64,000 nucleotides of DNA from the NCBI GenBank assembly GCA_902625325.1, contig CACOAW010000001.1, positions 66,537 to 130,536 of the forward strand, in the 5' to 3' direction. The position numbers were made by a program, and so were the translations under genes. Each line of letters begins with the position of its first letter. Within the stretch, counting starts at the first letter, position 1. Source of the DNA: an uncultured Candidatus Poseidoniales archaeon. GTDB lineage: Archaea; Thermoplasmatota; Poseidoniia; Poseidoniales; Thalassarchaeaceae. This document shows, one piece after another, positions 9,367 through 59,806 of the stretch. The notes beneath the pieces were generated by a model that worked only from the letters and a program-made list of their open reading frames with translations, was not told the DNA's origin and ran no database searches.

Positions 9367-10170
9367 GTGGACGGGATGGAATCTAGGGAGATTGCTAGGC
9401 TCAGTCATGCCGGAATAGCTAGAGAATTAGATTATGTAACGTCTGAATCACCCCTATCAATTAACGTAACTGACAGCAAAAATAACACGTTTGAGATGGG
9501 AATTACCATGAGGACTGAAGGTGACGACAGGAGGTTGATTCTAGGATTCCTATACTCAGAAGGAGTAATTGACTCTATAGCAGACGTTTCTAGCATAAGC
9601 ATCGGAGATGGAATTGGATCAATAGTTCTCAACGAGTCATCATCTTTCGACTCTACCTTACATCGAAGGAATAGTACCGTAACATCTTCTTGTGGACTCT
9701 GTGGAAGATCAGACATTAATGGACTTCTTAAATTGGAAAATACCGTTCTAGATGAGGAAATGTCAATTTCTCTAGAGGCAGTTTCGGTCTGTCTTAACTC
9801 AATACATTCTGAACAGCCTATTTTCTCTCTTACCGGCGGATCTCACGCTTGTGCAAGTTTCAGAGTCGACGGGTCGATAGATCGTGTATTCGAGGATGTT
9901 GGGAGGCACAATGCATTCGATAAAATGGTAGGGTATTACCTAGAAATGGGTTTGTTACCAAAGCCTGGATTTGGTGCATTCGTATCTGGAAGGGCCTCAT
10001 TTGAATTGGTACAGAAGTGTATAAGGGGTGGCTTCCCAATAATGATTGCAATCGGTGCTCCGAGTAGCCTAGCTGTCGATATATCGAACGAATATGGGCT
10101 CACTTTGGGTTGTTTCGCAAGGGATGATAGTTTGACTTTATTCAGTGGAGTTAGGAGGGTTGTAGATTAG
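9367..10170 (+). CDS. fdhD: formate dehydrogenase accessory sulfurtransferase FdhD
   Basis: 267 aa with VTSSCGLCGRS (the catalytic Cys loop), GGSHACA and GRHNAFDK blocks typical of FdhD. Confidence 0.8.
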   Translation: MDGMESREIARLSHAGIARELDYVTSESPLSINVTDSKNNTFEMGITMRTEGDDRRLILGFLYSEGVIDSIADVSSISIGDGIGSIVLNESSSFDSTLHRRNSTVTSSCGLCGRSDINGLLKLENTVLDEEMSISLEAVSVCLNSIHSEQPIFSLTGGSHACASFRVDGSIDRVFEDVGRHNAFDKMVGYYLEMGLLPKPGFGAFVSGRASFELVQKCIRGGFPIMIAIGAPSSLAVDISNEYGLTLGCFARDDSLTLFSGVRRVVD

Positions 10171-23996: not shown

Positions 23997-24869
23997 CTAC
24001 CGACGGATTGTATACCCGTCCACGACACTCGCTAATGATTCCATTTGGTCATCATCTATGATGCCTTCATCTAGCTTCTCCTGTAGGAAATCCTTGGCCT
24101 CCTTGCTGGTCTGCCTCTCACCTCTGGCCCATATTGTCGCTAAGAGATTTGAACGGAACTCCTCCGGGACGCCAATTTCTACTAGGAGTCCTCGCATCTC
24201 ATACTTGTATTCCATGTGTCTGCTCCTGTCCAGTCTTCTAGCACGGTTAGCAGGCTGATATGATGATGTCTTGCTACGGAATTTTTTCTGGGGTTTCTTA
24301 GGCTCGGATTTTGTTTCCGATGGGGTTTTCTTGGAAACACTAATTGTTTTTTCTTTCTCCGCTGCAAGTGAGGCCCTTAGTAAGCTATCTTCTATAATCT
24401 GCCTGGCCTTTAGACTCTTACCGGAGGTCTCGACCTTGGGTTCTACCTTAGTTGTAATTTCAGCGGCCTTCTTTTTCGCCTTCGTTGATTTTTTCTCCTG
24501 AGATGGCTCTTCAACGTTTTTTACACCAAGAATCTGACTCTCCAGTATTTTTTCCTCTCGCTCTGCAATTTGAGGAACAGCGGATTGCTCTCCTGACTCT
24601 ACGGAATCAGTTTGTTGATCCTGCTTGATTTCCTTAATTGTAGAGGGTCGCGGCTTTGGCACGGGTTTGGGCCTTGAACCAGGTGCAGATGGGGGTGCTG
24701 CTCTTGGTGACCTGGGTTTGGGCGATTTTGTTTTGGAAACACTGCCTGATTTTGCTTTGGAAGATGTTTGTGAAGTTGCTCCGAAAATGTTCTTCGGCGC
24801 TGCCTTCTTTCTCCTTCTCCTCTGCACTGTGTAATCAATCCTCATTCTTCCGGCCCTAAGGACTCTCAT
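23997..24869 (-). CDS. hypothetical protein: long basic Lys/Pro/Ser-rich low-complexity region plus an ~85-aa C-terminal folded domain
   Basis: 290 aa. The N-terminal 200 aa are dominated by K, P, S and E (SKPRSPRAAPPSAPGSRPKPVPKPRPS; KKSTKAKKKAAE). The C-terminus reads HMEYKYEMRGLLVEIGVPEEFRSNLLATIWARGERQTSKEAKDFLQEKLDEGII.... It lies between kae1 and mcm on the same strand. Confidence 0.45.
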   Translation of the reverse strand: MRVLRAGRMRIDYTVQRRRRKKAAPKNIFGATSQTSSKAKSGSVSKTKSPKPRSPRAAPPSAPGSRPKPVPKPRPSTIKEIKQDQQTDSVESGEQSAVPQIAEREEKILESQILGVKNVEEPSQEKKSTKAKKKAAEITTKVEPKVETSGKSLKARQIIEDSLLRASLAAEKEKTISVSKKTPSETKSEPKKPQKKFRSKTSSYQPANRARRLDRSRHMEYKYEMRGLLVEIGVPEEFRSNLLATIWARGERQTSKEAKDFLQEKLDEGIIDDDQMESLASVVDGYTIRR

Positions 24870-46987: not shown

Positions 46988-47884
46988 ATGGAAACCCAAA
47001 TTCGAAAGGCTAGAGGGTTTACTTTGGAGCTCAACGAGTCGAATATCTCATCAGTTTTCGAAAAGAACTCCGAGTTAGTCAGCAAGAAGTTGGCAGAATA
47101 CAAAGATCGTCGCGATGAGTTGAACGTTAAAGTAAGGAGTCAGCTGGATAAAAGAAACGAGATAAATTTGCAGGTAAAGCAGCTAATCACTGAAGTTCAG
47201 AAGCAAAAGAGTCTGAGGAACGAGGCTAATAGCAAGGTAGCTGAATTGAGGAAAATTAGACTAGAGAGGACAAACGAATTGAAGGATATTAGGGCAAAAC
47301 TAAGGAGTTCGGTTGAGAAGAATGGTAGTCAATCGGGAACGAAAAGGAAAGGTCCTAGTTCTCGGGGTATAAAGGAACAGATGAACAAGCTTGAGTGGCG
47401 CCATCAAACTGGACAAATTAGTCCGAGTAAAGAAAAGGATTTCTTCGCAAAGATGAAGAGGCTGCAGGTAGATTTTAAGAGGCTCAAGAAAGAAGAGGAA
47501 GTTAGTAGTTCAAGCATTTTGAGAGAGGTTAGACAGGCAGAAAAAAAGCAGCAGAAGGCTCATGATGCAGTCACTGATGCATCAGAGAAATCTGAAGAAG
47601 CCCATTCACTAATGATGGAGTTATCAAATGAAGTTGACAGATTGAGGGGCATGGCAAATTCTGAGCACTTGGGCCTAACTTCAACTAAGTCAAATGCTGA
47701 TGAGTTGCATAACAAGTATATCATTTCTCTAAGGTGCATTCATTCTATGCAGGACATCCTGAAACTGTCTGGTTCCAAGAAGGAACACGAAGAAGAGAGA
47801 ATTGAGGTTTCCGACTTAATGTCCAGACTAATGAGTGGTGATACGCTTTCGGATGAGGACATGATGCTACTTCAGAGAAACTAA
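46988..47884 (+). CDS. archaeal coiled-coil protein (COG1340-like), paralog 3
   Basis: 298 aa. YKDRRDELNVKVRSQLDKRNEINLQVKQL...; central MNKLEWRHQTGQISPSKEKDFFAKMKRL; C-terminus DLMSRLMSGDTLSDEDMMLLQRN. Confidence 0.6.
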   Translation: METQIRKARGFTLELNESNISSVFEKNSELVSKKLAEYKDRRDELNVKVRSQLDKRNEINLQVKQLITEVQKQKSLRNEANSKVAELRKIRLERTNELKDIRAKLRSSVEKNGSQSGTKRKGPSSRGIKEQMNKLEWRHQTGQISPSKEKDFFAKMKRLQVDFKRLKKEEEVSSSSILREVRQAEKKQQKAHDAVTDASEKSEEAHSLMMELSNEVDRLRGMANSEHLGLTSTKSNADELHNKYIISLRCIHSMQDILKLSGSKKEHEEERIEVSDLMSRLMSGDTLSDEDMMLLQRN

Positions 47885-48844
47885 GTCATATAATCGGCCA
47901 TTTCTTCCATGCAGAACCTTATCTGATTCGAGATTAATCAGCCAGCCTGGGATGAATACTCTGAAGTGATCGAACATTGCCATTTGCATATCCAAGACCC
48001 ACTTTTCTAATAGCATGCTCCTAACAGTGCCGGAGATGCTCACCACACCAAAGTCCCCTCTTCTCCTTTCCTCTACTATCTTGGAAATCTCGATTTTTAG
48101 CCTGTCATCGCATAGCCAATTTCCTTTGGGTGGTTCTATTGACCTGATCTTCGGGGAATTTTGCATACTTTCTGATTCACCGATGATGCTGAGCCTCTGA
48201 GACCATGGATCCTCCAGTATTGTCCAATCGCCTCTTTCACTACTTCCACTAGGTCCATGCAAATCTCCCGATACTCTCCAAATTCGAGCCTCTAGCAACA
48301 TTGGTGATGATGAAAATCCCTCTATTCCTCGGCTCGCAGACCAAGAGTCTAAGTCAATCTTCGATCTGAGAACCCGCATCCTCTCCTCATTGGAATAAGT
48401 GGAAAGGCCATTAGATTCTGTGATACTTGAGTCCTCAGGAACAGCCGAGGCCACAAGGTCTCCGGAAAGAACCGCGCTTCCAATCCACTGGGAAACCTGG
48501 TCTGGCGAAATTATTCGGAATTTAGTTTCATTAATGGGATCGCAATCAGAATGAGTCGGTCGCTCACTCAGGATCAGGTGGAAGCCACCCGGGGCATCAA
48601 TCTCGAATCTGTCTAGCTCGCTTCTAGTAATTGGTAGAATTTCCGAAGGAGCATACCAAATCAAGATTCTTCCTGTATCGATACCGAAATCGGGCACTGC
48701 TGTGGCTAGGCCAATTGGTTTGAATGGGGATTCGGGCATCACTATATTGAATGAGTCGAAGTCCACTGATCTTATCCTAAGAAGCGCTCGTAATACATCC
48801 TCCATAGCTCTAGGCTTACGGTCACGTCTTTCAATGGAACGCAA
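47867..48844 (-). CDS. hypothetical protein
   Basis: 325-aa ORF on the same strand as, and immediately downstream of, rpl30e. I recognise no motif. Confidence 0.4.
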   Translation of the reverse strand: MRSIERRDRKPRAMEDVLRALLRIRSVDFDSFNIVMPESPFKPIGLATAVPDFGIDTGRILIWYAPSEILPITRSELDRFEIDAPGGFHLILSERPTHSDCDPINETKFRIISPDQVSQWIGSAVLSGDLVASAVPEDSSITESNGLSTYSNEERMRVLRSKIDLDSWSASRGIEGFSSSPMLLEARIWRVSGDLHGPSGSSERGDWTILEDPWSQRLSIIGESESMQNSPKIRSIEPPKGNWLCDDRLKIEISKIVEERRRGDFGVVSISGTVRSMLLEKWVLDMQMAMFDHFRVFIPGWLINLESDKVLHGRNGRLYDLVSLK

Positions 48845-48874: not shown

Positions 48875-49177
48875 TCAGACGTTTGGGGCTAACTGCAGTA
48901 GATCGCTCTGTCCCGGATTGATTACGCACAGTGAGCTGACAGGGAATGGCTTTCCGCATGCAGCTCCAAGTTGTCGATTTACCATGGTGACCTGATGAAT
49001 TGGTACTGACGGATGCGTTTTCCTCAAATCATCGATAAACGATTCGGGGCAATTTGAGGCGACCAGTACTAACTTTGCACCTCCTTTGGTACAGTTTGAT
49101 ATTGTCTGTCTTTGGCCGAAGACTAGTTCTCCTGAGTTAATTCCTTGCTTCAGTTGTCTTGCTATGTCCATATTCAA
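48875..49177 (-). CDS. rpl30e: 50S ribosomal protein eL30
   Basis: AKLVLVASNCPESFIDDL... 100 aa, in the canonical position after rpoA2. Confidence 0.8.
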   Translation of the reverse strand: MNMDIARQLKQGINSGELVFGQRQTISNCTKGGAKLVLVASNCPESFIDDLRKTHPSVPIHQVTMVNRQLGAACGKPFPVSSLCVINPGQSDLLQLAPNV

Positions 49178-49180
49178 ACC

Positions 49181-50761
49181 TCAGTTGTTTTCCTCGGGGA
49201 TGTAGAATAGTTCGACGCTGCCCGTTCCAAGCGATACCGGTTGGCCCACGATGATATTCTCTGTCACTCCCGATAGGTTGTCCCTTTCGCCGATTACTCC
49301 TGCCTTTAGCAGATGTGTAACTGTGACCTCGAAAGCCGAACGAGCAAGGATTGAGTGCTTTGTCCCGCTTACACCGTGACGGCCAATCGCCCTCACCTCT
49401 CCACCAGTAGTCATCACATCTGAGACCATAATCAGGTGCCTCACGTCGACATCGAGACCTGCACCCTCTAGAGTATCCCACATTTCGTTAATTATGGCTT
49501 GTCTTGCGGCCTCTATACCTAGGTAGTCATGTATCTCATTGATATTGTTCGTATACGTTCTTGTTCTGTCCACGCCGTCGAACTCACTGACCTTCGATAG
49601 GTTTGAGCCGATTGTCGAGATGTAGTATTCACCTGTTTCTGACATTGGTCCCTGTACTGTCGCTCTGCTAATTCCTGGTAGTCCCTTCAATCGCAGTTTC
49701 TTGATCTTGTCCTCGAGTTGCAAAAGAGCTGTGTAAGTAGGTGGATCGGATGCAAGGGACTCAAGATCTTCTTCCTTAGACACTCCAGGGATGATTCGTA
49801 GAGACTTTGGGCGGTCATCGTCATCGGCCTGCACGTACAGCCTTAGAGCGCGTGACAGCTTGTCTCTGACCTCTGCACCAGTCATTTTCTTCAGCTTCAT
49901 GTTTTTGTTGTTTAGCTGGAGTAATATGTTCCGCTGAGCTACATCTACGTCAATAGTTGCGATATCTATAGCGGTGGTTGTCTCTATGGATGCTGCTAAG
50001 TCTCGAACCAGCTTTTCATTGGTCCTCAGTGGCTTCCCTTTGGAATTCTTCTCGTCCAAGTAAATAATCATGGTCGGGGTTTGGGGTACCTTCCTGGCAT
50101 CGACAATCTCGATTATCCTAGGTAGACCCTGGGTAACGTTCACTGTAGCAACACCTGCATAGTGGAATGTACGCATAGTCATCTGAGTACCGGGTTCTCC
50201 GATAGACTGGGCAGTGGTAATTCCTACCGCCTCATGTGGAACGGCCTTTGCGTCATTGTAGAAGTTACTTGCCGAGTTGATGATTTTCTTGGCCTTAGCG
50301 GCTGTGATCTTCTTCTCCCCCCTGTTGTGCAACCCTTGGACAAGTTGGTCGATCATCCTCGGAGTCAGGTTTGAGGCGCTTTCCTCAGCGGCTTTGTTCA
50401 GCTGGATGAACATCTCATCATCGCTATCGACATCACGGAATAGTTGCTTCATCTTGGTCTTATAGTCATAATCTTGCAAGGGTAATGACTTCTTCGTTCT
50501 CCTAGCTCGGGACACTGTTCTTCTGCGGACAATGGTCTTCTCAGTACTGGCGGCAGAAGCCCTGCTGGACTTTACGGAGCTAGCCATTACATCGTGGATT
50601 CTCTGAGAAGTTCCAGAGTCGATTCCACATATCTGAGCGATTTGCCCTGGAGAGAGTCCCTTTACATCGTCCCATTTGCGATCATCCGCTAACTTGTGAG
50701 CATACTCTTCTTCTATCCCCAGATCCATCAACTTCTTCTTAGTTGCACTCTTGACTACCAT
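49181..50761 (-). CDS. rpoA2: DNA-directed RNA polymerase subunit A'' with ~95-aa N-terminal extension
   Basis: [28 protein letters not shown] and downstream A'' blocks. 526 aa against the usual ~390. The N-terminus is [27 protein letters not shown].... Confidence 0.9.
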
Positions 50762-53700
50762 CAGTTAGCACCTCCTAGCGCATCGTTTAGCACCTGATCT
50801 ACATCAAATGGGCTGCCCTTTCTACTTCTGGCAGGATCGGTCCCATCCTCTCCGTACTCGAATTGTATAATCCGGTTTGCAGTATTTCTTACTGAGGCCT
50901 TCGTGTCATTAGAAACCTTGAGATCATCCATGGCGTTAATCAATCTTCTCTGCATATAACCAGACTTACTCGTTCTTACTGCGGTATCGACTAGTGATTC
51001 CCTACCGGAAACTGAAAGCATGAAGAATTCGGTTGGTTCGAGGCCTCGCTTGAAAGAAGAAGAAACGAAACCCTTCTCCTTTGATCCCTTAACTTTCCTA
51101 GGGAAGTGGGAAAGGACTCTATCTTGATAGCCCCGCTCAAGTCGCTTGCCTCTAACTTTCGGCTGTCCAATGGATCCCGCCATCATTGCTAGATTGTCCA
51201 TTGAACCCCTCGCTCCAGAGGTCGCCATAAGAACGGCTGAATTGTCATCGCCAAGTTGTGCCTTCGCGACGTTTCCAGTTTCAGCCTTTGCGGCGTCTAG
51301 GATTGTCAGTATGTTCTCCTCGAGAGTTTCGTGTGGAGTTCTTCCTGGCCTGGCCTCGTACTTCCTTCCGTCCTTTCCGAACTTTTCTAGTTCGGAGTCA
51401 ACACTAGCGCTGGCCTCAGAGTTGATTCTCATGATCTCTTCCTTAGCCTCAGGAGGTAGGTCTTCGTCATCTATTCCAGTGGTGAATCCCATTGCTGTGC
51501 AAATGGCGATTGTCATCTTTGTCATCTTGTTGATGAAGTCTGCCCCTCTATCAGTTCCATGTGTCTGTACGACCGCGTCTAGAAGACGACCATCCTCCGC
51601 TCCAATTCCTCTCTTGTCGATAGAACCGGAGACGTCTCCTTGAGATACCTTGACTTCTTCTCCAGCACGATTCTTGAAGTTCAGAGTGAATCCTCCCTTC
51701 ACAAGAAGACTGAAGACATCGTTTCCTAACAATCCGGTCTGTCCATTTCTCTCCACTGGTGGGGGAATTTCACCCTCCCATCCAATAGAGCTGAGGACAT
51801 CCATTGCAACCGGCATTGGAAGGAAGGCCTCTCCATGCGTCAAAAGGTAAGCACCCGTGATGTGATCGTGTATTCCCCCAATGACGCTTCCCCCATATCT
51901 TGGCGATATAATGTGCTCTTGGACCCTCATGAGGATTCTAGCCTCGGCCCTAGCTTCCTCACTCTGTATTACGTGTAGGTTCATCTCGTCCCCATCAAAA
52001 TCAGCATTGTAGGGTGTACAGTCCGCGAGGTTGAATCTGAATGTCTTGCCTTCCATGACTCTTATTTCATGGACTAGCATTGACATCCTGTGGAGTGATG
52101 GTTGTCGATTGAAAATGGTTACATCTCCGTCAATAAGGTGCCTTTCGACAACAACTCCTGGCCTTGGGTTGCCGTCTCTATCGTAGGTGCTTAATCGATC
52201 CTCTACTTCTGTAGGGTAGAGGTTGCCATGTTCATCCTCGATGTCGGGGCTTCCGCAATGTGGACATTTCACCTCGAGGTGATCGGGAAGGTACTCGTCC
52301 GGATTTTCTACTTCCCACTTCCAGCGATGATGTATTGCCCCATCCTGATCGTCCTCGGCTAGGGGTTTTCCGTCTTCTCCCTCTCCTCTAAGGTTTGACA
52401 GAGTCCTATCCAAATCTACGCTCCACTCGGGAAGGAGCTCGTCTGTCATGGGGTCCCTGCGCATTTGCTCCTTCAGAACGAGCCCGGGGAGGAAGTTAGG
52501 AGCAGGGAGGACCTCATTCAAATCAGGCCTGTAACCCATGTATGGTTCCTCTTCAGTACCACAGTGGCAATCTGGATTCAGACACCTAAATCCTGCCCAG
52601 ATGTACTTCGTTCTATCAGTAATCCTAACCCTGAATCTATCTCCTCTAATGATGTAGTTGACACCAGGGTGAACATCTGGGCCCCTAAGAATCATCTGTC
52701 TGAGTTGTTCCCTGTTCCTACTTGTAGCTCTGATAGGCACTGTCAGCTCCTTAGCCGTCTTCACTGGGACGCCCACTTCGTTGATCCCGAGGTTCGGATC
52801 GGGGCTGATTACCGTTCTAGCACAAAAGTTAACTCTCTTTCCAGATAAGTTACTCCTGAATCGACCCTCCTTCCCCTTTAGCCTCTGAGATAGGGTCTTT
52901 AGTGGCCTTCCGGATCTGTGTCGAGCCGGCGGAATGCCACTGGTCTGATTATCGAAATATGTCGTGCAATGATACTGCAATAGTTCCCAGAGATCTTCAA
53001 CGATAAGTTGTGGGGCTCCTGAATCACGATTTTCTCTGAGTCTCTGGTTTATCCTCAGGACGTCTACTAACTTGTGTGTGAGGTCATCCTCGGATCTATC
53101 TCCGCTTTCAAGAGTGATAGATGGCCTAACAGTTATTGGCGGAACTGGTAATACCTTCATAATTGTCCATTCTGGTCTGCTAACGTCTTTCTCCATTCCG
53201 AGGAAAATTAGATGCTCATCGGGTATCTTTTCAAGCCATTCTCGGATATCGCGTGCATTCAGTTTGTGCTCTCCCTTGTCCGCCTTCTTTTCTTTGAAGG
53301 TTGTTGGTTTATCCAGAATTACCTTACCCTGCTCTGCGCCGCAATGCATGCATATTGCACGCTTGGGGCCCGCGCAGATATTCTCAATATCCTTAATGAT
53401 TTTCTTGAATTCTCTGCCTCCGACTCCGTGCTTCAGGATGATGTCGTTCACTCTGTCTCTGTAGTAGTCCTGCTCAGACTTCTCTGGATCAGTGGGATGT
53501 GTTTGGGGAGCATCGTGCAGTAAGGCCTTACTGCATGTGTTGCAGGTAGTCTTCAAACACGTCTTGATTAGGCCGGTGAATCCTATGTGCATAACAGGTA
53601 ACTCTAGGGCTATGTGGCCGAAGTGACTTGGGCATTCTTCGTGCTTGTTTCCGCAGGTTTCACACCTGATACCAGGGTCAATTACCCCCATCTTTGGATC

Positions 53701-53856
53701 CATCAAACCTTGTTTGAATGCATGGCCATCGTCCTTGTATGTGTCTGCTGTCTTTACCTCGACGGATGACATCTTCCTTATCTCGTTCGGATCCATCAGC
53801 GTGAATCTAATCGAGTCTATTCTCTTCGGTATTTTTGCTGCATCTCGAGCGCTCAT
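50761..53856 (-). CDS. rpoA1: DNA-directed RNA polymerase subunit A' with internal insertion
   Basis: N-terminal zinc motifs ([17 protein letters not shown]; CMHCG), [11 protein letters not shown] and [13 protein letters not shown]. 1031 aa. The extra segment spans residues ~418-566. Confidence 0.95.
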
Positions 53857-56800
53857 CTTCTGTCCTCCAGTTCTAGTCTCATTGCTACTCCAAGACTCTT
53901 CATTTCGTCCAGGAGGAGTTTGAATGCGTAGGAGGTCTGGACGCTGTGGACATCTGATCTATCGCCGCAAACAGGACAGATCGTTGTCCTTCTCTTCCAA
54001 TCATAGTATGCGATATGGCCGCATCTGGGGGTGTTGCAGACCATTAGATTCCAGCCATCTGACTCGTCGAGAAGTCGGTCCTTGATTACCATGGATGCAC
54101 CATGAGAAATCAGACAGTCACGCTCCATCTCTCCGAATCTGAGGCCTCCTTGCCTCGCTCTACCTTCTGTTGGTTGCCTAGTAAGGATTTGTACCCTTCC
54201 TCTGCTTCGAGCATGGAGTTTGCTACTTACCAAATGATGGAGTCTCTGATAATAGATAACACCGACGAAAGTATCGACAGGGAAACTCTCTCCCGTCTCT
54301 CCGTTAATCATCGGCTCCCTACCTGTGTGCCTCAAACCGTTTCTGATTAGTCCCGATCTAAGTGACTCTTCCTTTTCCCCGGTGAATGCGGTTCCATCTA
54401 TTCTTCGTCCTTCCATGGATCCAACCTTTCCACCAATCATCTCCAACACGTGGGCCACAGTCATTCTCGAAGGAATAGCGTGAGGGTTGATGAGTAAATC
54501 GGGTATTACCCCGTCTTCTGTGAATGGCATGTCCTCTTCATTTACCAGTCTCCCAATTATTCCCTTTTGTCCGTGTCTACTGGCGAACTTATCTCCAAGT
54601 TCAGGAACCTTATTTGTCCTCAGAGTTATCCGGACTAGCCTGCCTGAGTCTAGGGACTCCGTAACGAAGATGTTGTCCACCCAACCCTTCTCACCGTGAC
54701 GAACTAGCATAGAGGACTCCCTACGTTCCTGCGCCTGCAGGAATGCCCCGTGTGATTCTTCTAGGAATCTGGGCGGGCTAGTTTTACCTACGAGTATAGA
54801 CCTACCTCCTTCTTGGCTGGTCAGCTCAACCTCTGGAACTGGAAGTCCGTCTCTTTCCAGATGAGAGTATGAATCCCACGACTTGAGCCCCTTGATTTCA
54901 TCGAGGCCCGTACCTGGAACCTCGATCCTCTCCTCTTGTCCGCCCGGGAATCTCTTATTCTCTGCATTGTAAGTCCGGATGAACGCAGATCTTCCTAGGG
55001 CCCTTTCAACGGACGCTTTGTTCATAATCACGGCGTCTTGCATGTTGTAACCGTGATGGCTAACTATCGCAACTACGAAATTCTGACCTCCGGGTCTTTC
55101 GTCGAATTTAGTGGACTTCATAGCCCGGGTCCCCACAATTGACCTCTGGGGGTAGTGCATCACGTGTGCACGAGTATCGGGTCTAAGTCTGAAATTCGCA
55201 CTGGCCACTCCTAGGCTCTGCTTGACCATGGCTGTTCCACCCGTAACCCTTGGTGTTGAATTGTGTTCAGGATACGGGACTAGAGAGGCGCAAACGCCCA
55301 TGATGAGTTGGGGGTCAATCTCTACGTGAGTGTAAACCAGAACTGTGTGATCCTTTTTCTCCTTCCTCTTGAGGGCGTCCATATTCTCTTGGTAGTAGTT
55401 TAGTGGGACCTTGAATTTCTCTTTCTTTGACTCGCCATTGGGCATAGTTACTTCTGCAGAAACCTCTGCATGTGATATTCCATGCTCGCCAAGGTTGGTC
55501 CACTCTACCTTCGCTGGATTTATTGGGCGTTTGTTCTTTGGAGAAACTGCAGGCAAATCGAAAGGTCTTGGAGCTATCAAGAGATCTTCTTCTTCTTCGG
55601 CATCTACCCATTCCACAACCCCTCCAGAGACAAGGTCTGAGAATGTAATCTCGCCAGACTCTAATGCTTCCAAGTGCATCTTGGTAATTTGCAGGCTACC
55701 ATGGTCTATTATGAGAAGGGGGCGCAGCATTCTACCCCTATCGGTGTTGATGAAAACGTCACGATTCTCGTGGTCATGCCTGATGCTAACCTCTGGTCTA
55801 ATCCTACCCGATCTGCGTCTCCTTTTGAATTGGCTTACAAGCTTGTGCGGTCTCTTATGAAGGCCGAAAATATCCCCGTTAACATGTATCCTAGAACCGT
55901 CTGCCCAGCCTTCGGGATTATCGTCTACTCCAGCTTCCTTCAATAGTGCCTTGACGTCCTCTTCAGGAACTTCCTCTGAGACGTCTATCATCTGTGCTGC
56001 ATTCTTTACAAGGCCGCAATTTTGCCCCTCGGGAGTCTCATTGGGACAAAGTCTGCCCCATTGTGTAGGATGCAAATCTCTGGCCTCGAAATGGGGTTGG
56101 CTCCGAACCAATGGGCTCGTGACCCTCCTCATGTGAGATAGTGCAGACAAGTATGTCGTCCTGTCAAGGAGTTGGCTTACTCCTGACCTTCCCCCGACCC
56201 AATTTCCTGTTGCGAGGGCATGCATAATCTTGGTCGTAAGGACGTCAGGACGAAGGCACGAAGAAATTCTTAGTTCCCTTTTCCTGTTGTGGTGTCTCTC
56301 CAATTGGTACTTCAAGTCCCGAGCCAGTTGTTGTAGGCTTACCCTGAAGAGATCCTCCACGAGATCGCCGGCCAGCCGGACTCGCTTGTTCGCGTAGTGA
56401 TCTTTGTCATTAGGATCCTTGTCCATTATGGCCATCTCAAGAACTTGTCTAGCAATACGGCCTAGGAAAATTGCTTTCTTCTCCCTATTATCAAACTTCG
56501 ATCCTAAGTGAGGCAGTAACTCGTTATCGAGTAAGTTTTGGATTCTAGATTCTCTGTACTCCTTCTGCTGTCCTGCCGCGAACTTCTTTTCCAGCCAGGC
56601 TAGAGCCTCCTCAGATGTGTCGACACCATACTCCTCGTTATCCCTAAGATCGTTGAGGTTAGCGACAGTATACTTCATGGCCTCGGGAGGTCCTGCAATG
56701 GAGGCGAAGATATCCATATCCTTAGCCACTCCTAGTGCTCTCATCAGGAGAACTAGAGGAATTGGGGTAGTTCCGGCACTAGGAATCTTCACCATCAGCA

Positions 56801-57545
56801 TTCCATCTCTTCTCTTTTCGACATTCAGTGGCTTCCTTACGCCGTCTTTCTGGGAGAATATTTTGGCAACCTGGGTTTCATGGGCATACTTCTTGTTCTT
56901 CTCTACTGTTACTCTGTTCGGAGCGAGATCCTCCATAGAAATCAGAACTCTCTCTGTCCCGTTGATGATGAAGTAACCTCCGGGATCAAGAGGATCTTCA
57001 CCGTACTTTCGTAGAAGTTGTGTGTATCTCTCCGAATCCTCAGTGGAAGTTTCGGGAGAGAGCCGTCGATTCTCGTCTGCATGGTTTGGGTTAAGGTTGC
57101 ACCTAGCCGATCTAACCATTATCGGTAAATTTCCTATGTGGACGCTGGTTTCCTCCTGGAATCCCATCTCGGATCCAGGAGATGGGGGCAAATCGTCACG
57201 AAAAATCTTGAAGTCTAGATAGACGGGTGAGAAATATGTAAGCTTCCTGAGCCTACATTCCATTGGGGTCGCATTGTGTTCTGCCCCGTTGGCCTCCTTT
57301 ATTGTGGGCCTGCCCAGCCTGAGATTCTTGAGTCTAACAATAATTTCTTTATCCAACAGATCGAGTTTGACCAAACCTCCCTCGTCGTCTTCTACTGGTT
57401 CGTCACTACCAATCCTGATGTTCCGCACGATGTTCTCCATCCGACTCTCTTTACCATCTCCGATAGGGATGCAGTCATTGTACGAAGCAAGTTGGTGGTT
57501 AACTAGGCTTCTATGCTTGAAATAACTCTCAACAATCTCTCTCAA
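53853..57545 (-). CDS. rpoB: DNA-directed RNA polymerase subunit B (unsplit)
   Basis: 1230 aa. GRSGVSQLLDR, SRHGQKGI, GGLRFGEMERDCLISHGA and a C-terminal zinc motif CNTPRCGH...CPVCG. Confidence 0.95.
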   Translation of the reverse strand: MREIVESYFKHRSLVNHQLASYNDCIPIGDGKESRMENIVRNIRIGSDEPVEDDEGGLVKLDLLDKEIIVRLKNLRLGRPTIKEANGAEHNATPMECRLRKLTYFSPVYLDFKIFRDDLPPSPGSEMGFQEETSVHIGNLPIMVRSARCNLNPNHADENRRLSPETSTEDSERYTQLLRKYGEDPLDPGGYFIINGTERVLISMEDLAPNRVTVEKNKKYAHETQVAKIFSQKDGVRKPLNVEKRRDGMLMVKIPSAGTTPIPLVLLMRALGVAKDMDIFASIAGPPEAMKYTVANLNDLRDNEEYGVDTSEEALAWLEKKFAAGQQKEYRESRIQNLLDNELLPHLGSKFDNREKKAIFLGRIARQVLEMAIMDKDPNDKDHYANKRVRLAGDLVEDLFRVSLQQLARDLKYQLERHHNRKRELRISSCLRPDVLTTKIMHALATGNWVGGRSGVSQLLDRTTYLSALSHMRRVTSPLVRSQPHFEARDLHPTQWGRLCPNETPEGQNCGLVKNAAQMIDVSEEVPEEDVKALLKEAGVDDNPEGWADGSRIHVNGDIFGLHKRPHKLVSQFKRRRRSGRIRPEVSIRHDHENRDVFINTDRGRMLRPLLIIDHGSLQITKMHLEALESGEITFSDLVSGGVVEWVDAEEEEDLLIAPRPFDLPAVSPKNKRPINPAKVEWTNLGEHGISHAEVSAEVTMPNGESKKEKFKVPLNYYQENMDALKRKEKKDHTVLVYTHVEIDPQLIMGVCASLVPYPEHNSTPRVTGGTAMVKQSLGVASANFRLRPDTRAHVMHYPQRSIVGTRAMKSTKFDERPGGQNFVVAIVSHHGYNMQDAVIMNKASVERALGRSAFIRTYNAENKRFPGGQEERIEVPGTGLDEIKGLKSWDSYSHLERDGLPVPEVELTSQEGGRSILVGKTSPPRFLEESHGAFLQAQERRESSMLVRHGEKGWVDNIFVTESLDSGRLVRITLRTNKVPELGDKFASRHGQKGIIGRLVNEEDMPFTEDGVIPDLLINPHAIPSRMTVAHVLEMIGGKVGSMEGRRIDGTAFTGEKEESLRSGLIRNGLRHTGREPMINGETGESFPVDTFVGVIYYQRLHHLVSSKLHARSRGRVQILTRQPTEGRARQGGLRFGEMERDCLISHGASMVIKDRLLDESDGWNLMVCNTPRCGHIAYYDWKRRTTICPVCGDRSDVHSVQTSYAFKLLLDEMKSLGVAMRLELEDRR

Positions 57546-57557
57546 TTATATTCCTCC

Positions 57558-58145
57558 TTATGCGCTCTCCACTATTAGCCTGAATGCCACTGATTGTCCT
57601 GCAGATCTGCTGTATCGAACGACCTTGACGACTCTATTTGCCAGCCATCCCGCAGGAAGCTCATCGTTCTCAGATTCTTCGACTTCCTTGATAACCTGGA
57701 TTGCAGGATCGGTAATCAGTATCTTTGGAAGTAGTTCCTTTGCGAGCCTGTCCTTTCCGAAGGCATCATCCGTTTTGAGCCCCCATGGCTCTAGGATTTG
57801 TGCTTCATCCTCGATAGGGACTAGTTCATGATGAGGCACGAGCACATGGTTAAGCACATTGAATCTGTAGTCCCCAGTAGGGATGTCTTCATCCAAAAGC
57901 GCTTTGCGGGAAATAGTGATTCTGTTGCTCTTACTTCTCTTACGAGAGCCTACGTGTTCACTAATCACGCCCATTATATGCTCGAGTTCAGAGACCCCGT
58001 CATCGAGGCCTACCTTTTTCGCAACCTGCTCCCTGGACATTCTCTTGATTGTATCCAGGTTTGCGTCGTCCGCCAACTTGTGTGCGTGATCTTCTGGAAT
58101 CCCCAGCTCTATCAGTCTCTTTTTTGTTGAGCTCTTTACTGCCAT
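57558..58145 (-). CDS. rpoH: DNA-directed RNA polymerase subunit H with ~95-aa N-terminal extension
   Basis: The C-terminal ~100 aa carry the RpoH/Rpb5 core (FNVLNHVLVPHHELVP...LPKILITDPAIQ...VVKVVRYSRSAGQSVAFRLIV). It sits in the canonical position upstream of rpoB. The N-terminus is MAVKSSTKKRLIELGIPEDHAHKLADD.... Confidence 0.85.
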   Translation of the reverse strand: MAVKSSTKKRLIELGIPEDHAHKLADDANLDTIKRMSREQVAKKVGLDDGVSELEHIMGVISEHVGSRKRSKSNRITISRKALLDEDIPTGDYRFNVLNHVLVPHHELVPIEDEAQILEPWGLKTDDAFGKDRLAKELLPKILITDPAIQVIKEVEESENDELPAGWLANRVVKVVRYSRSAGQSVAFRLIVESA

Positions 58146-58191
58146 GACTCTTCCCCCGCCCTGAAAAGCGAGGGCCTGAGGAGCTGTCGGG

Positions 58192-58265
58192 CGGGCCTGA
58201 GGGGATTCGAACCCCCGGCCACCGGGTTAAAAGCCCGGCGCTCTACCTGACTAAGCTACAGGCCC
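58192..58265 (-). tRNA. tRNA-Lys (anticodon UUU), CCA not encoded
   Basis: The reverse complement folds by hand. Acceptor GGGCCTG/CAGGCCC; D arm GCTT/GAGC; anticodon stem CCGGG/CCCGG; loop CTTTTAA; T arm GGGGG-TTCGAAT-CCCCT; discriminator G. Confidence 0.9.
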
Positions 58266-58435
58266 ATGGCTGATGCTGGGCTATCCTCGGACCCAAGGGG
58301 TCTTCAAAAGGCTTACGCATAACAAAGCTCTCGCAAATCGGCGGGGCACCTGAGAAGAGCCGCCTCGAATGCTATTTATTTCGCTCACGGCATAAAGTTT
58401 GTTGAAGTCGAGAATATCCGGTAGACACAACAATT

Positions 58436-59806
58436 TTGTCTTTAGGCGAGTTGAAGAAAATGATGACCAAGACCAAAGTCTCATTGGAAGGAATTGGGGA
58501 GTTGGTGGTAGTCTCACCTCAGACTGTCTACCCGCCAAGAGAGGATTCGTTATTACTATGCAGAGTCATTTCACAATTTACCCCCATTCCAGGAGTGAGG
58601 GCACTAGAAATTGGATGCGGATCAGGAATAGTTACTATGGTCTTAGCGACTCTTGGTTGGGAAGTTTCGGCTTGTGACTTGAATCCATATGCTGTATCGG
58701 CAACAAGGGGCAATATGGAGAGCAACGGGATTCTAGGTAGTCACAGAATAGTCGAATCCGGTGTTGGAGAAGATTTGGTAATTCCAAGTGGAACAGGATT
58801 AGTGGTATGGAATCTACCTTACCTTGAATGTGGAGATGAGGACCATCAATTCGAGAAAATAGAGGAAATTGCATGGTCTGATATTCCAGAGAAGGGTTGG
58901 GGTGGAGAGCTTCTAAACTTCTTAGATTCTCAACACAATGTGGATGAGTTGGTGGCATTGATAGTAATGAAGACAGAGCCCGAGGGGAAAAGTAAGGTCG
59001 TTGACTGGGAACAAAGAGGGTGGACATCTCGGACACTTGGTTCGGAGAGATTTGGGGAAGAGAAGATTGAGGTTGTGGCCTTTTGGAAGACCGGATCAGG
59101 ACAGACTCCAACTATCATTGATACTTGCACTTCGACAATGGAAGAAGTGATGGAAATATCGAATGGAGATTGGGTAAGAGTCATGGCAAAGACTCAGACG
59201 AATGGGAGGGGGAGGAAGAATTCCCAATGGATCTCAGAGGAGGGCGGAGTTTTCGCCACGTGGAAATTAGGATCGGGCCTGATTGACGAGTTCTCCCCTG
59301 GAATTATCCAAACTAGTGTTGGAGCTGTGGTTTCCACGGTTCTGAAAGCAGAAATGAAGTGGCCGAACGATATCCTCAACAGAAAAGGAGAGAAGATGGG
59401 AGGGGTCCTTGTTGAGTCTTCGAGTGACGAAGATAGCGGAATTAGAATAGGGATTGGGGTAAACCGATTTGGTTTTTCCAGAGAAGGGAAAATCCGGGGT
59501 TGCGGTTGGGAAGAGACCCTCGGTGACGTGGATGCGAAGGAGGTATTCAAAAAAATAGATAGGGGGATTTCTTCTATCTTTGAAAATACTGGTATCTTGC
59601 CCCTCCCTTGCAAGAATAGTCTGGTCATCCAATCTTGGATGGCTCTATCGAAATCCCTGTCCAGAGGTGTTGCTGTAAGATTGGACAATGAATTAGTTAG
59701 GCCTTCAGGATTGAACGAGTTAGGTAAGTTGCGGGTTTCTGGAGGGTCCATTGGAAGTGTAGATATTGGGGATCTAGACGTAATTGAGTGGTTAGGCTAC
59801 AGGTAG
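58436..59806 (+). CDS. fusion protein: N-terminal HemK/Mtq2-like SAM methyltransferase plus C-terminal biotin--protein ligase (BirA catalytic domain)
   Basis: N-terminal half: VYPPREDSLLL, LEIGCGSGIVTMVLA, VVWNLPYL (NPPY-like). C-terminal half: AKTQTNGRGRKNSQWISEEGGVFATW (the GRGRxxxxW biotin-ligase motif), KWPNDIL and GIGVN. The start is either TTG 58436 or ATG about 58460. Confidence 0.7.
   Translation: MSLGELKKMMTKTKVSLEGIGELVVVSPQTVYPPREDSLLLCRVISQFTPIPGVRALEIGCGSGIVTMVLATLGWEVSACDLNPYAVSATRGNMESNGILGSHRIVESGVGEDLVIPSGTGLVVWNLPYLECGDEDHQFEKIEEIAWSDIPEKGWGGELLNFLDSQHNVDELVALIVMKTEPEGKSKVVDWEQRGWTSRTLGSERFGEEKIEVVAFWKTGSGQTPTIIDTCTSTMEEVMEISNGDWVRVMAKTQTNGRGRKNSQWISEEGGVFATWKLGSGLIDEFSPGIIQTSVGAVVSTVLKAEMKWPNDILNRKGEKMGGVLVESSSDEDSGIRIGIGVNRFGFSREGKIRGCGWEETLGDVDAKEVFKKIDRGISSIFENTGILPLPCKNSLVIQSWMALSKSLSRGVAVRLDNELVRPSGLNELGKLRVSGGSIGSVDIGDLDVIEWLGYR

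Follow-up and report, generated by a model that had tools for sequence, protein, structure and literature searches.

An N-terminal helical module on RNA polymerase subunits H and A'' of Marine Group II archaea that also heads proteins of virus- and mobile-element-like contigs

In the textbook archaeal RNA polymerase, subunit H is bare, and accessory domains of the lower jaw that bind DNA or factors are seen as inventions of eukaryotes (the Rpb5 jaw) or of crenarchaea (Rpo13). An N-terminal domain is lacking in archaeal H (PMC3906176; PMC2847245). The subunit forms part of the lower jaw, has been described as "strongly associated with subunit A''", and can be cross-linked to DNA downstream, at positions +10 to +20 (PMC2847245). 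The groove beside Rpo5 carries positive charge; in Sulfolobales it holds Rpo13, and in eukaryotes the Rpb5 jaw takes up part of it (PMC2675907). We analyzed a 64,000-nt stretch of DNA (the window, to which positions refer unless a contig is named) from a Marine Group IIb (MGIIb) archaeon (Thalassarchaeaceae, Poseidoniales), in which RpoH and RpoA'' each begin with a copy of one small module, designated here as the head, followed by a basic linker, the leash, and by the subunit core. Marine Group II (MGII) is among the archaeal lineages that are most abundant in surface ocean waters. The head is a lineage-specific accessory domain on polymerase subunits with an unexpected link to mobile elements.

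The polymerase genes were all located on the minus strand in the canonical archaeal order: rpoH, the first gene of the operon (57558–58145, 195 amino acids (aa)), unsplit rpoB (53853–57545, 1230 aa), rpoA' (50761–53856, 1031 aa; matching solved archaeal Rpo1N with E=3e-278), and rpoA'' (49181–50761, 526 aa). The rpoB and rpoA' genes (50761–57545) sit between the two genes with extensions. RpoH consisted of a head, predicted to be a five-helix domain (aa 1–64; 57954–58145), a basic leash, predicted to be disordered (aa 65–94; 57864–57953; GSRKRSKSNRITISRKALLDEDIPTGDYR), and a core, the Rpb5 C-terminal or assembly domain (aa 95–195 with the stop codon; 57558–57863). The core matched Pfam family PF01191 (Rpb5_C) at aa 95–191 with 49.4 bits against a cut-off of 23.5, and phmmer aligned aa 97–193 to residues 3–75 of the 78-aa subunit H of M. 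jannaschii (1hmj_A). The extension of ~94 aa (aa 1–94) corresponds exactly to positions 57864–58145; the length of RpoH, an extension of ~95 aa and a core starting near aa 95 had been correctly read in the first-pass annotation of the window. With its 195 aa, RpoH departs from the canonical architecture of archaeal H, which is the assembly domain only (~75–90 aa). Compared with M. jannaschii H, the RpoH core also had two short insertions (aa ~126–136 and ~151–165), which were longer still in orthologues from the MGIIa archaea (216-aa protein).

RpoA'' was composed of the paralogous head (aa 1–62; 50576–50761, minus strand), a strongly basic leash (aa 63–112; 50426–50575), and a core corresponding to Rpb1 domain 5 with trigger loop, jaw, and cleft (aa 113–526 with the stop codon; 49181–50425). 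The core matched PF04998 (Rpb1 domain 5) above the cut-off, with 161 bits, and phmmer aligned aa 113–520 to residues 7–390 of S. shibatae A'' (2y0s_C) with E=1e-87. The extension was ~106–112 aa long, and its leash had no counterpart in solved archaeal A'' chains. The head was absent from the solved archaeal chains of both subunits (78–84 aa for H and 391–397 aa for A''); ordinary archaeal RpoH and RpoA'' occur without the module, and for H the lack of an N-terminal domain is also stated in the literature (PMC3906176, PMC2847245).

The N-termini of RpoH and RpoA'' aligned without gaps and had 19 identical residues among the first 27 and 29 among the first 56, which agrees exactly with the earlier hand counts. 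For the full-length proteins, BLASTP gave 33/74 identities with E=2e-15. The first 168 nt of the two genes were 58% identical, with matches at 36/56, 42/56, and 19/56 of the first, second, and third codon positions, respectively. This low identity of the DNA and of the third positions indicates, therefore, that the similarity has been held at the protein level since an old duplication and does not come from a recent DNA copy; recent gene conversion between rpoH and rpoA'' was ruled out by the same values (58% of nucleotides and 34% of third positions). Thus, the comparison identifies the two heads as old paralogues of one, presumably folded, helical module. With regard to the order of the duplication and the MGIIa/MGIIb split, the A'' heads of MGIIa and MGIIb grouped together (40/56 identical residues). 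The H heads of the two groups shared 25/56 residues, being as distant from each other as from the A'' heads (29–30/56).

A hidden Markov model (HMM) of the head, built from 120 heads and run on all six-frame open reading frames (ORFs) of the window, found only rpoA'' (E 3e-34) and rpoH (E 4e-23). A third copy, suspected earlier in the protein encoded at 23997–24869 (minus strand), was not confirmed: the protein had no match to the head HMM at E≤10 and no Pfam match, and its LLVEIGVPEEF stretch was ruled out as a head by the HMM. The N-terminal part of this 290-aa protein was long, basic, of low complexity, and rich in Lys, Pro, and Ser, and its C-terminal part was short and looked conserved.

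The 62 head codons of rpoA'' were compared with those of 80 species-level genomes. The codon differences were 2184 synonymous against 493 nonsynonymous (a 4.4-fold excess), and the nucleotide differences at codon positions 3, 1, and 2 were 2456, 534, and 254, respectively. The translation start signals of rpoA'' (50761–50775, minus strand) comprised a Shine–Dalgarno sequence GGAGGTG (50769–50775) and the stop codon TGA of rpoA' overlapping the ATG (TGATG); this arrangement, GG[AG]GGTG-N6-T[GA]ATG, was kept in the 80 related genomes, with either TGATG or TAATG. More than 1000 homologues of RpoH were found. Nearly all of the best 120 were full-length (193–197 aa), the rest being alternative starts or truncated entries; the head was intact in these 120 save for a few truncated or internally called ones, and the named matches included Thalassarchaeaceae. 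The start codon of rpoH varied among ATG, TTG, and GTG at one fixed position. In the alignment of MGIIa and MGIIb RpoH, the mean column identity was 0.90 for the first 35 aa, 0.84 for the leash, and 0.82 for the core, while the later half of the head (helices 4 and 5) was least conserved (0.69). The synonymous excess, the conserved start signals, and the conservation from MGIIa to MGIIb therefore indicate that both extensions are translated as protein, as had been argued from their similarity, and are under purifying selection.

A profile of the head was searched against 1.84 billion representative proteins at E≤0.001, and the module was found in 185 clusters. Their named sources were Poseidoniales, generic labels of archaeal metagenome-assembled genomes (Poseidoniales, Euryarchaeota, Thermoplasmatota, or Methanobacteriota archaeon), and marine metagenome only. 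The carriers included Thalassarchaeaceae (MGIIb) and Poseidoniaceae (MGIIa), in the latter of which RpoH had 216 aa (P0293) and RpoA'' had 521 aa (P0374), and all sampled MGII genomes had the head on both of these core subunits. Judging from these sequence searches, the head is a feature of Poseidoniales, occurring on both subunits in both MGII families and foreign to ordinary archaeal H or A''. We failed to find in the searchable literature a description of the module or a paper joining MGII or Poseidoniales with RpoH, Rpo5, subunit H, or helix-hairpin-helix. Four head-bearing metagenome proteins (P0123, P0188, P0190, and P0338) ended with CLLYTSPSPRD... or SYTHLTLPT...; we take these endings to be translated sequencing-adapter sequence at contig ends, that is, assembly artefacts that inflate the cluster count.

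The same searches indicate that the head is not confined to the polymerase, and this is the chief result that goes beyond the first-pass annotation. Among the best 150 of the 185 clusters, 14 were RpoH-like and 14 were RpoA''-like by their tails, 7 were fragments of MGIIa RpoA'', and the rest were fragments or had unrelated tails. At least 12 unrelated multi-member tail families and many singletons, from ~120 to 1292 aa in length, began with the head. It was nearly always located at residue 1, with the near-invariant beginning MVVKSATKK[KR]LMD, and was internal in two proteins, an 851-aa ATPase and a 547-aa protein (P0224, aa 93–144; P0218, aa 451–506). The non-polymerase heads were mostly of the A'' type (..DDRKWDDVK..), which was the closest type to most of them, with a few of the H type. 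Nearly all tails were without a Pfam or PHROG match. In the invariant first 13 codons, synonymous positions varied freely, and Ser codons were swapped between AGT and TCA; therefore, the constraint lies on the protein. A DNA-level cause of this invariance, such as an att site or a translation element, was ruled out by the same variation.

One syntenic, unclassified family of mobile elements or viruses (L081, L084, L094, and L095; contigs of 11–30 kb) encoded a primase-like protein, a TFB/TFIIB homologue, a Holliday-junction resolvase, a Cas4-like nuclease, an XPD-like helicase, tRNA-Lys, and tRNA-Leu. One protein of this family came in two forms, P0275 (337 aa) with the head and P0332 (272 aa) lacking it. 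On contig L087, the head gene was flanked on both sides by tyrosine recombinase genes, and other head genes were located within stretches of ORFans only. Genes for ERCC4 nuclease, PCNA, ribonucleotide reductase, ParA-like ATPase, and tRNA-Arg were found on two contigs of 160 and 51 kb (L099 and L100, respectively) together with two tandem head genes encoding 160 and 157 aa (9468–9950 and 10001–10474 in L099; 6956–7438 and 7489–7962 in L100). These contigs probably belong to a large archaeal virus absent from IMG/VR and INPHARED. An 83-kb contig (L101, L102) encoded dCMP deaminase and had a match to a PHROG "virion structural protein". Scans of IMG/VR with the head profile, P0275, the TFB homologue, and PCNA found nothing, and neither did tblastn of INPHARED with the head and PCNA; since the carriers are absent from both databases, the term "virus-like" refers to gene content only. 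These data show that domain shuffling has spread the head onto many virus- and mobile-element-like proteins. The first-pass annotation had described a duplicate module on peripheral polymerase subunits; its paralogy and its location on H and A'' stand, but the description is too narrow for a module that also heads many unrelated proteins. The presence of the head outside the polymerase, therefore, changes what the module is likely to be for.

The structure was predicted with AlphaFold2 (AF2) for the extension with 45 diverse heads and for full-length RpoH with 33 orthologues. Both predictions gave five helices (aa 5–14, 18–27, 30–35, 38–45, and 52–64) with a predicted local distance difference test score (pLDDT) of ~80 at aa 11–60. 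In RpoH, the pLDDT was below 55 along the leash (aa 68–99; below 50 at aa 68–81 and 93–99), and the folded core followed. The leashes were basic, with a net charge of +4 and an isoelectric point (pI) of 10.4 in RpoH and +10 and 11.0, respectively, in RpoA''. The predicted layout, obtained from shallow alignments, corresponds to two helix-hairpin-helix (HhH) pairs with a connector helix, as in (HhH)2 domains. The top Foldseek neighbours in the PDB were the SAM domain of SARM1 (rank 1, E=0.88, probability 0.90), the (HhH)2 domains of FANCM–FAAP24, and the N-terminal domains (NTDs) of RadA/RAD51, with a root-mean-square deviation of 1.7–2.5 Å over 56–63 residues; for FANCM–FAAP24 and the RadA/RAD51 NTDs, the query-normalized TM-score was 0.4–0.54 with E of 0.9–1.4. 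Although not significant, these top neighbours all fall within a single fold class, the SAM-like one. A Foldseek search of the head against the BFVD viral structures gave nothing meaningful. Hairpin 1, L-G-[IV]-x-E-x-x-A-H-x-L, fits the HhH register G-h-x-x-x-x-A-x-x-h, with G15 conserved in at least 90% of the heads and P, E, S, A, or D at the position of the second Gly. The model points to a SAM-like/(HhH)2 fold class as the probable one. No Pfam family reached its cut-off for the head, either in the two full proteins or in the 45 heads. On the evidence of the profile searches, the head constitutes a sequence family of its own, and its membership in a known HhH sequence family is unsupported.

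We tentatively favor, with somewhat less than even confidence, the reading that the heads work as accessory arms for binding, tethered at the lower jaw where the polymerase faces the downstream DNA. H and A'' adjoin each other there beside the downstream DNA, and from the lower-jaw position of both subunits and the length of the basic leashes (30–50 residues) it follows that the heads would sweep the DNA-entry face. Contacts with duplex DNA would be made by the leashes, which are basic, and by the Lys-rich arm at the N-terminus (VKSxTKKK), and the head itself would bind DNA or a factor. Such a role would parallel that of the two C-terminal domains of the bacterial alpha subunits (alphaCTDs) and would occupy the niche of the eukaryotic Rpb5 jaw and of Rpo13 of Sulfolobales. 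Virus- and mobile-element-like proteins with the head might thereby reach the same ligand.

Several observations weigh against this reading. The heads, in distinction from the leashes, are slightly acidic, with a net charge of −2 in RpoH and −1 in RpoA'' (pI 6.0). A nearly invariant Glu stands just after hairpin 1, and hairpin 2 is acidic and variable, has indels and does not keep its Gly even among RpoH orthologues; these features are therefore unfavorable for canonical HhH phosphate contacts, and, with an acidic head and an almost invariant Glu, DNA binding via the hairpins is not a given. The near invariance of the first 13 residues across unrelated families speaks more for the recognition of a single, specific partner than for DNA binding without specificity. 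The AF2 alignments were shallow (45 and 33 sequences, Neff ~2.7), and no Foldseek match in the PDB was significant (best E=0.88; none at E≤0.001). The Pfam family HHH_5 remained below its cut-off (11.4 bits against 27 for RpoA'', none for RpoH; weak matches in 2 of the 45 heads, best E=0.095), and searches of the heads against all PDB sequences with phmmer and with a profile gave no relevant match at E≤10. In hhalign, nothing was found with the RAD51 NTD (probability 2%) and the E. coli alphaCTD, which are weak tests, both queries being approximate. The tandem HhH motif, (HhH)2, proposed in the first-pass annotation is consequently only partly upheld: the five-helix AF2 layout and the RadA/RAD51 and FANCM–FAAP24 neighbours agree with it, but nothing reached significance in structure or in Pfam, and the second hairpin is not conserved.

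Somewhat less probable, although a strong rival, is the reading that the head serves as a module for protein–protein docking or oligomerisation. It would self-associate in the manner of SAM domains, pair H with A'' as (HhH)2 domains do (cf. XPF–ERCC1 and FANCM–FAAP24), or be an "address tag" that a single conserved partner in the host recognizes, and virus- and mobile-element-like proteins with this tag would gain access to the partner or directly to the polymerase. The ranking of the Foldseek matches, with SAM first and the heterodimerising FANCM–FAAP24 pair next, is consistent with docking, as are the acidic character of the head and the invariance of its charged surface residues K4, K8, K9, D27, D31, and K34 across unrelated proteins. 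No fewer than 12 unrelated tail families have the head at their very N-terminus (residue 1), members of a single family from syntenic elements may have it or lack it (P0275 and P0332, respectively), and two tandem head genes accompany PCNA and ribonucleotide reductase on a virus-like contig. The positively charged Rpo5 groove (PMC2675907) would also suit an acidic head. However, the partner is putative, the match to SAM falls short of significance (E=0.88), and contact with DNA would agree equally well with a basic leash, an arm rich in Lys, and a position in the lower jaw. A more specific proposal, which we consider unlikely, is that the head is a docking tag for the MGII transcription machinery in particular: the H and A'' copies would bind each other or a common partner at the lower jaw, and viruses and other mobile elements of these archaea would have copied the tag onto a dozen or more proteins of their own, to plug into the host polymerase or compete with its heads, a takeover by molecular mimicry of the termini of polymerase subunits.

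Two other functions appear improbable, to a similar degree. The head could be a helix-turn-helix (HTH) like that of sigma-70 region 4, with helices 4 and 5 reading promoter-proximal sequences; 8 of the 45 heads weakly matched Pfam Sigma70_r4_2 (best E=0.0078), and the pattern IAxxxG-h-S/D-x-x-T was seen in RpoA''. All these matches, however, were below the Pfam cut-off, the loop between helices 4 and 5 comprised 6 residues with indels among orthologues, this half of the head was the least conserved one (0.69) and was swapped for unrelated sequence in most non-polymerase proteins, and the Foldseek neighbours were SAM and (HhH)2 domains, not HTH. A signal for targeting or processing (localisation, virion packaging, or N-terminal modification, cf. 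capsid-targeting peptides of packaged phage proteins) would explain the location of the module almost always at residue 1, its near-invariant first 13 residues, and its wide occurrence on virus-like contigs; such a signal is hard to reconcile with a predicted folded domain of ~60 aa, which is internal in P0224 and P0218 and is present on two essential core subunits in every MGII genome sampled. An annotation artefact, with translation from an internal Met and non-coding or accidental similarity upstream, is effectively refuted: some entries are called from internal starts (MELG..., 205 aa; MKSSTKK..., 193 aa; LGIPED..., 182 aa), and those from an internal Met, such as MELG..., are alternative gene calls, but the 4.4-fold synonymous excess in the rpoA'' heads, the AGT/TCA swaps of Ser codons that leave the amino acid unchanged, the conserved coupling of Shine–Dalgarno and stop/start, the conservation from MGIIa to MGIIb, and the match of the paralogues at E=2e-15 all contradict internal starts.

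RpoA' had an insertion of ~147 aa (aa ~420–566; 52159–52599, minus strand) relative to solved archaeal Rpo1N (880–910 aa), the flanks of which correspond to residues 401 and 409 of the P. furiosus subunit. It holds Cys pairs (CLNPDCHC ... CPHCGS), which suggests a zinc-binding insertion domain; this would be a further lineage-specific elaboration of this polymerase. The tRNA-Lys(UUU) gene (58189–58266, minus strand) preceded rpoH by 43 nt in the same orientation, and rpoH may be co-transcribed with it or start directly after it. The L081 and L094 elements also encode tRNA-Lys(UUU). Downstream of rpoA'', the L30e gene (48875–49177, minus strand) was followed by an ORF of 325 aa (47867–48844, minus strand) with no Pfam match; in archaeal operons, this place after L30e is usually occupied by nusA. 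On the plus strand, an ORF of 456 aa (58436–59806) encoded a class I methyltransferase region (PrmA/MTS-like, aa ~40–130) fused to a biotin/lipoate protein ligase domain (aa 249–343).

MGII archaea have independently added a tethered domain, in duplicate, to two neighbouring subunits of the lower jaw, an arrangement that recalls the two alphaCTDs of bacteria and provides a natural experiment in how polymerases gain regulatory arms. The occurrence of the head on ORFan proteins of virus-like contigs points to an uncharted virus–host transcription interface in an uncultured group. The first 13 residues of the head can serve as a sequence marker to find such elements and tentatively link them to Poseidoniales hosts.

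Among known domains, SAM domains are mainly eukaryotic and are typical modules for protein–protein interaction and oligomerisation. They resemble the head in size and in the five-helix bundle, provided its top Foldseek match, and, being used for protein–protein contacts, would fit a head found on unrelated proteins, but have no sequence match to it. The (HhH)2 domains of RadA/RAD51, XPF–ERCC1, and FANCM–FAAP24 share with the head the five-helix, two-hairpin layout that is predicted for it and the hairpin-1 pattern; in contrast to them, the MGII hairpins are acidic, the second one is not conserved, and the Foldseek E-values are not lower than 0.88.

Rpo13 of Sulfolobales and Desulfurococcales is likewise lineage-specific, small, helical, partly disordered, and basic; its docking site lies between Rpo5/H and the clamp head, close to the downstream DNA at +8, with a proposed DNA contact (PMC2675907). 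Rpo13 forms a subunit of its own and contains an HTH, whereas the MGII heads occur in two copies, as fusions to H and A''. The comparison of the head with all PDB chains, presumed to include the Sulfolobus Rpo13 chains, gave no Rpo13 match at E≤10.

The eukaryotic Rpb5 jaw has an alpha/beta fold. It is also an extra N-terminal domain on the same subunit, in the lower jaw near downstream DNA (PMC2675907; PMC2847245). The Rpb5 jaw is attached rigidly and comprises ~130–140 aa (PMC2675907), whereas the MGII head has ~60 aa, five predicted helices, and a disordered leash. In the phmmer alignment of RpoH with Rpb5 (9mu7_E), the head (aa 1–64) was unmatched, and only aa 65–125 (to Rpb5 residues 108–167, domain E=0.29) and 169–191 were aligned. 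The MGII head and the Rpb5 jaw are independent inventions.

The bacterial alphaCTD belongs to fold class a.60 of SCOP. No sequence relationship between it and the head was detectable by hhalign with an approximate query. The MGII heads are N-terminal, are located on H and A'' at the downstream lower jaw and not on the upstream alpha dimer, have strongly basic leashes and only a putative ligand. Like the alphaCTD, the head would be free to reach DNA or regulators, being a small helical domain of the SAM-like/(HhH)2 class, present in two copies per polymerase and joined to it by a flexible linker.

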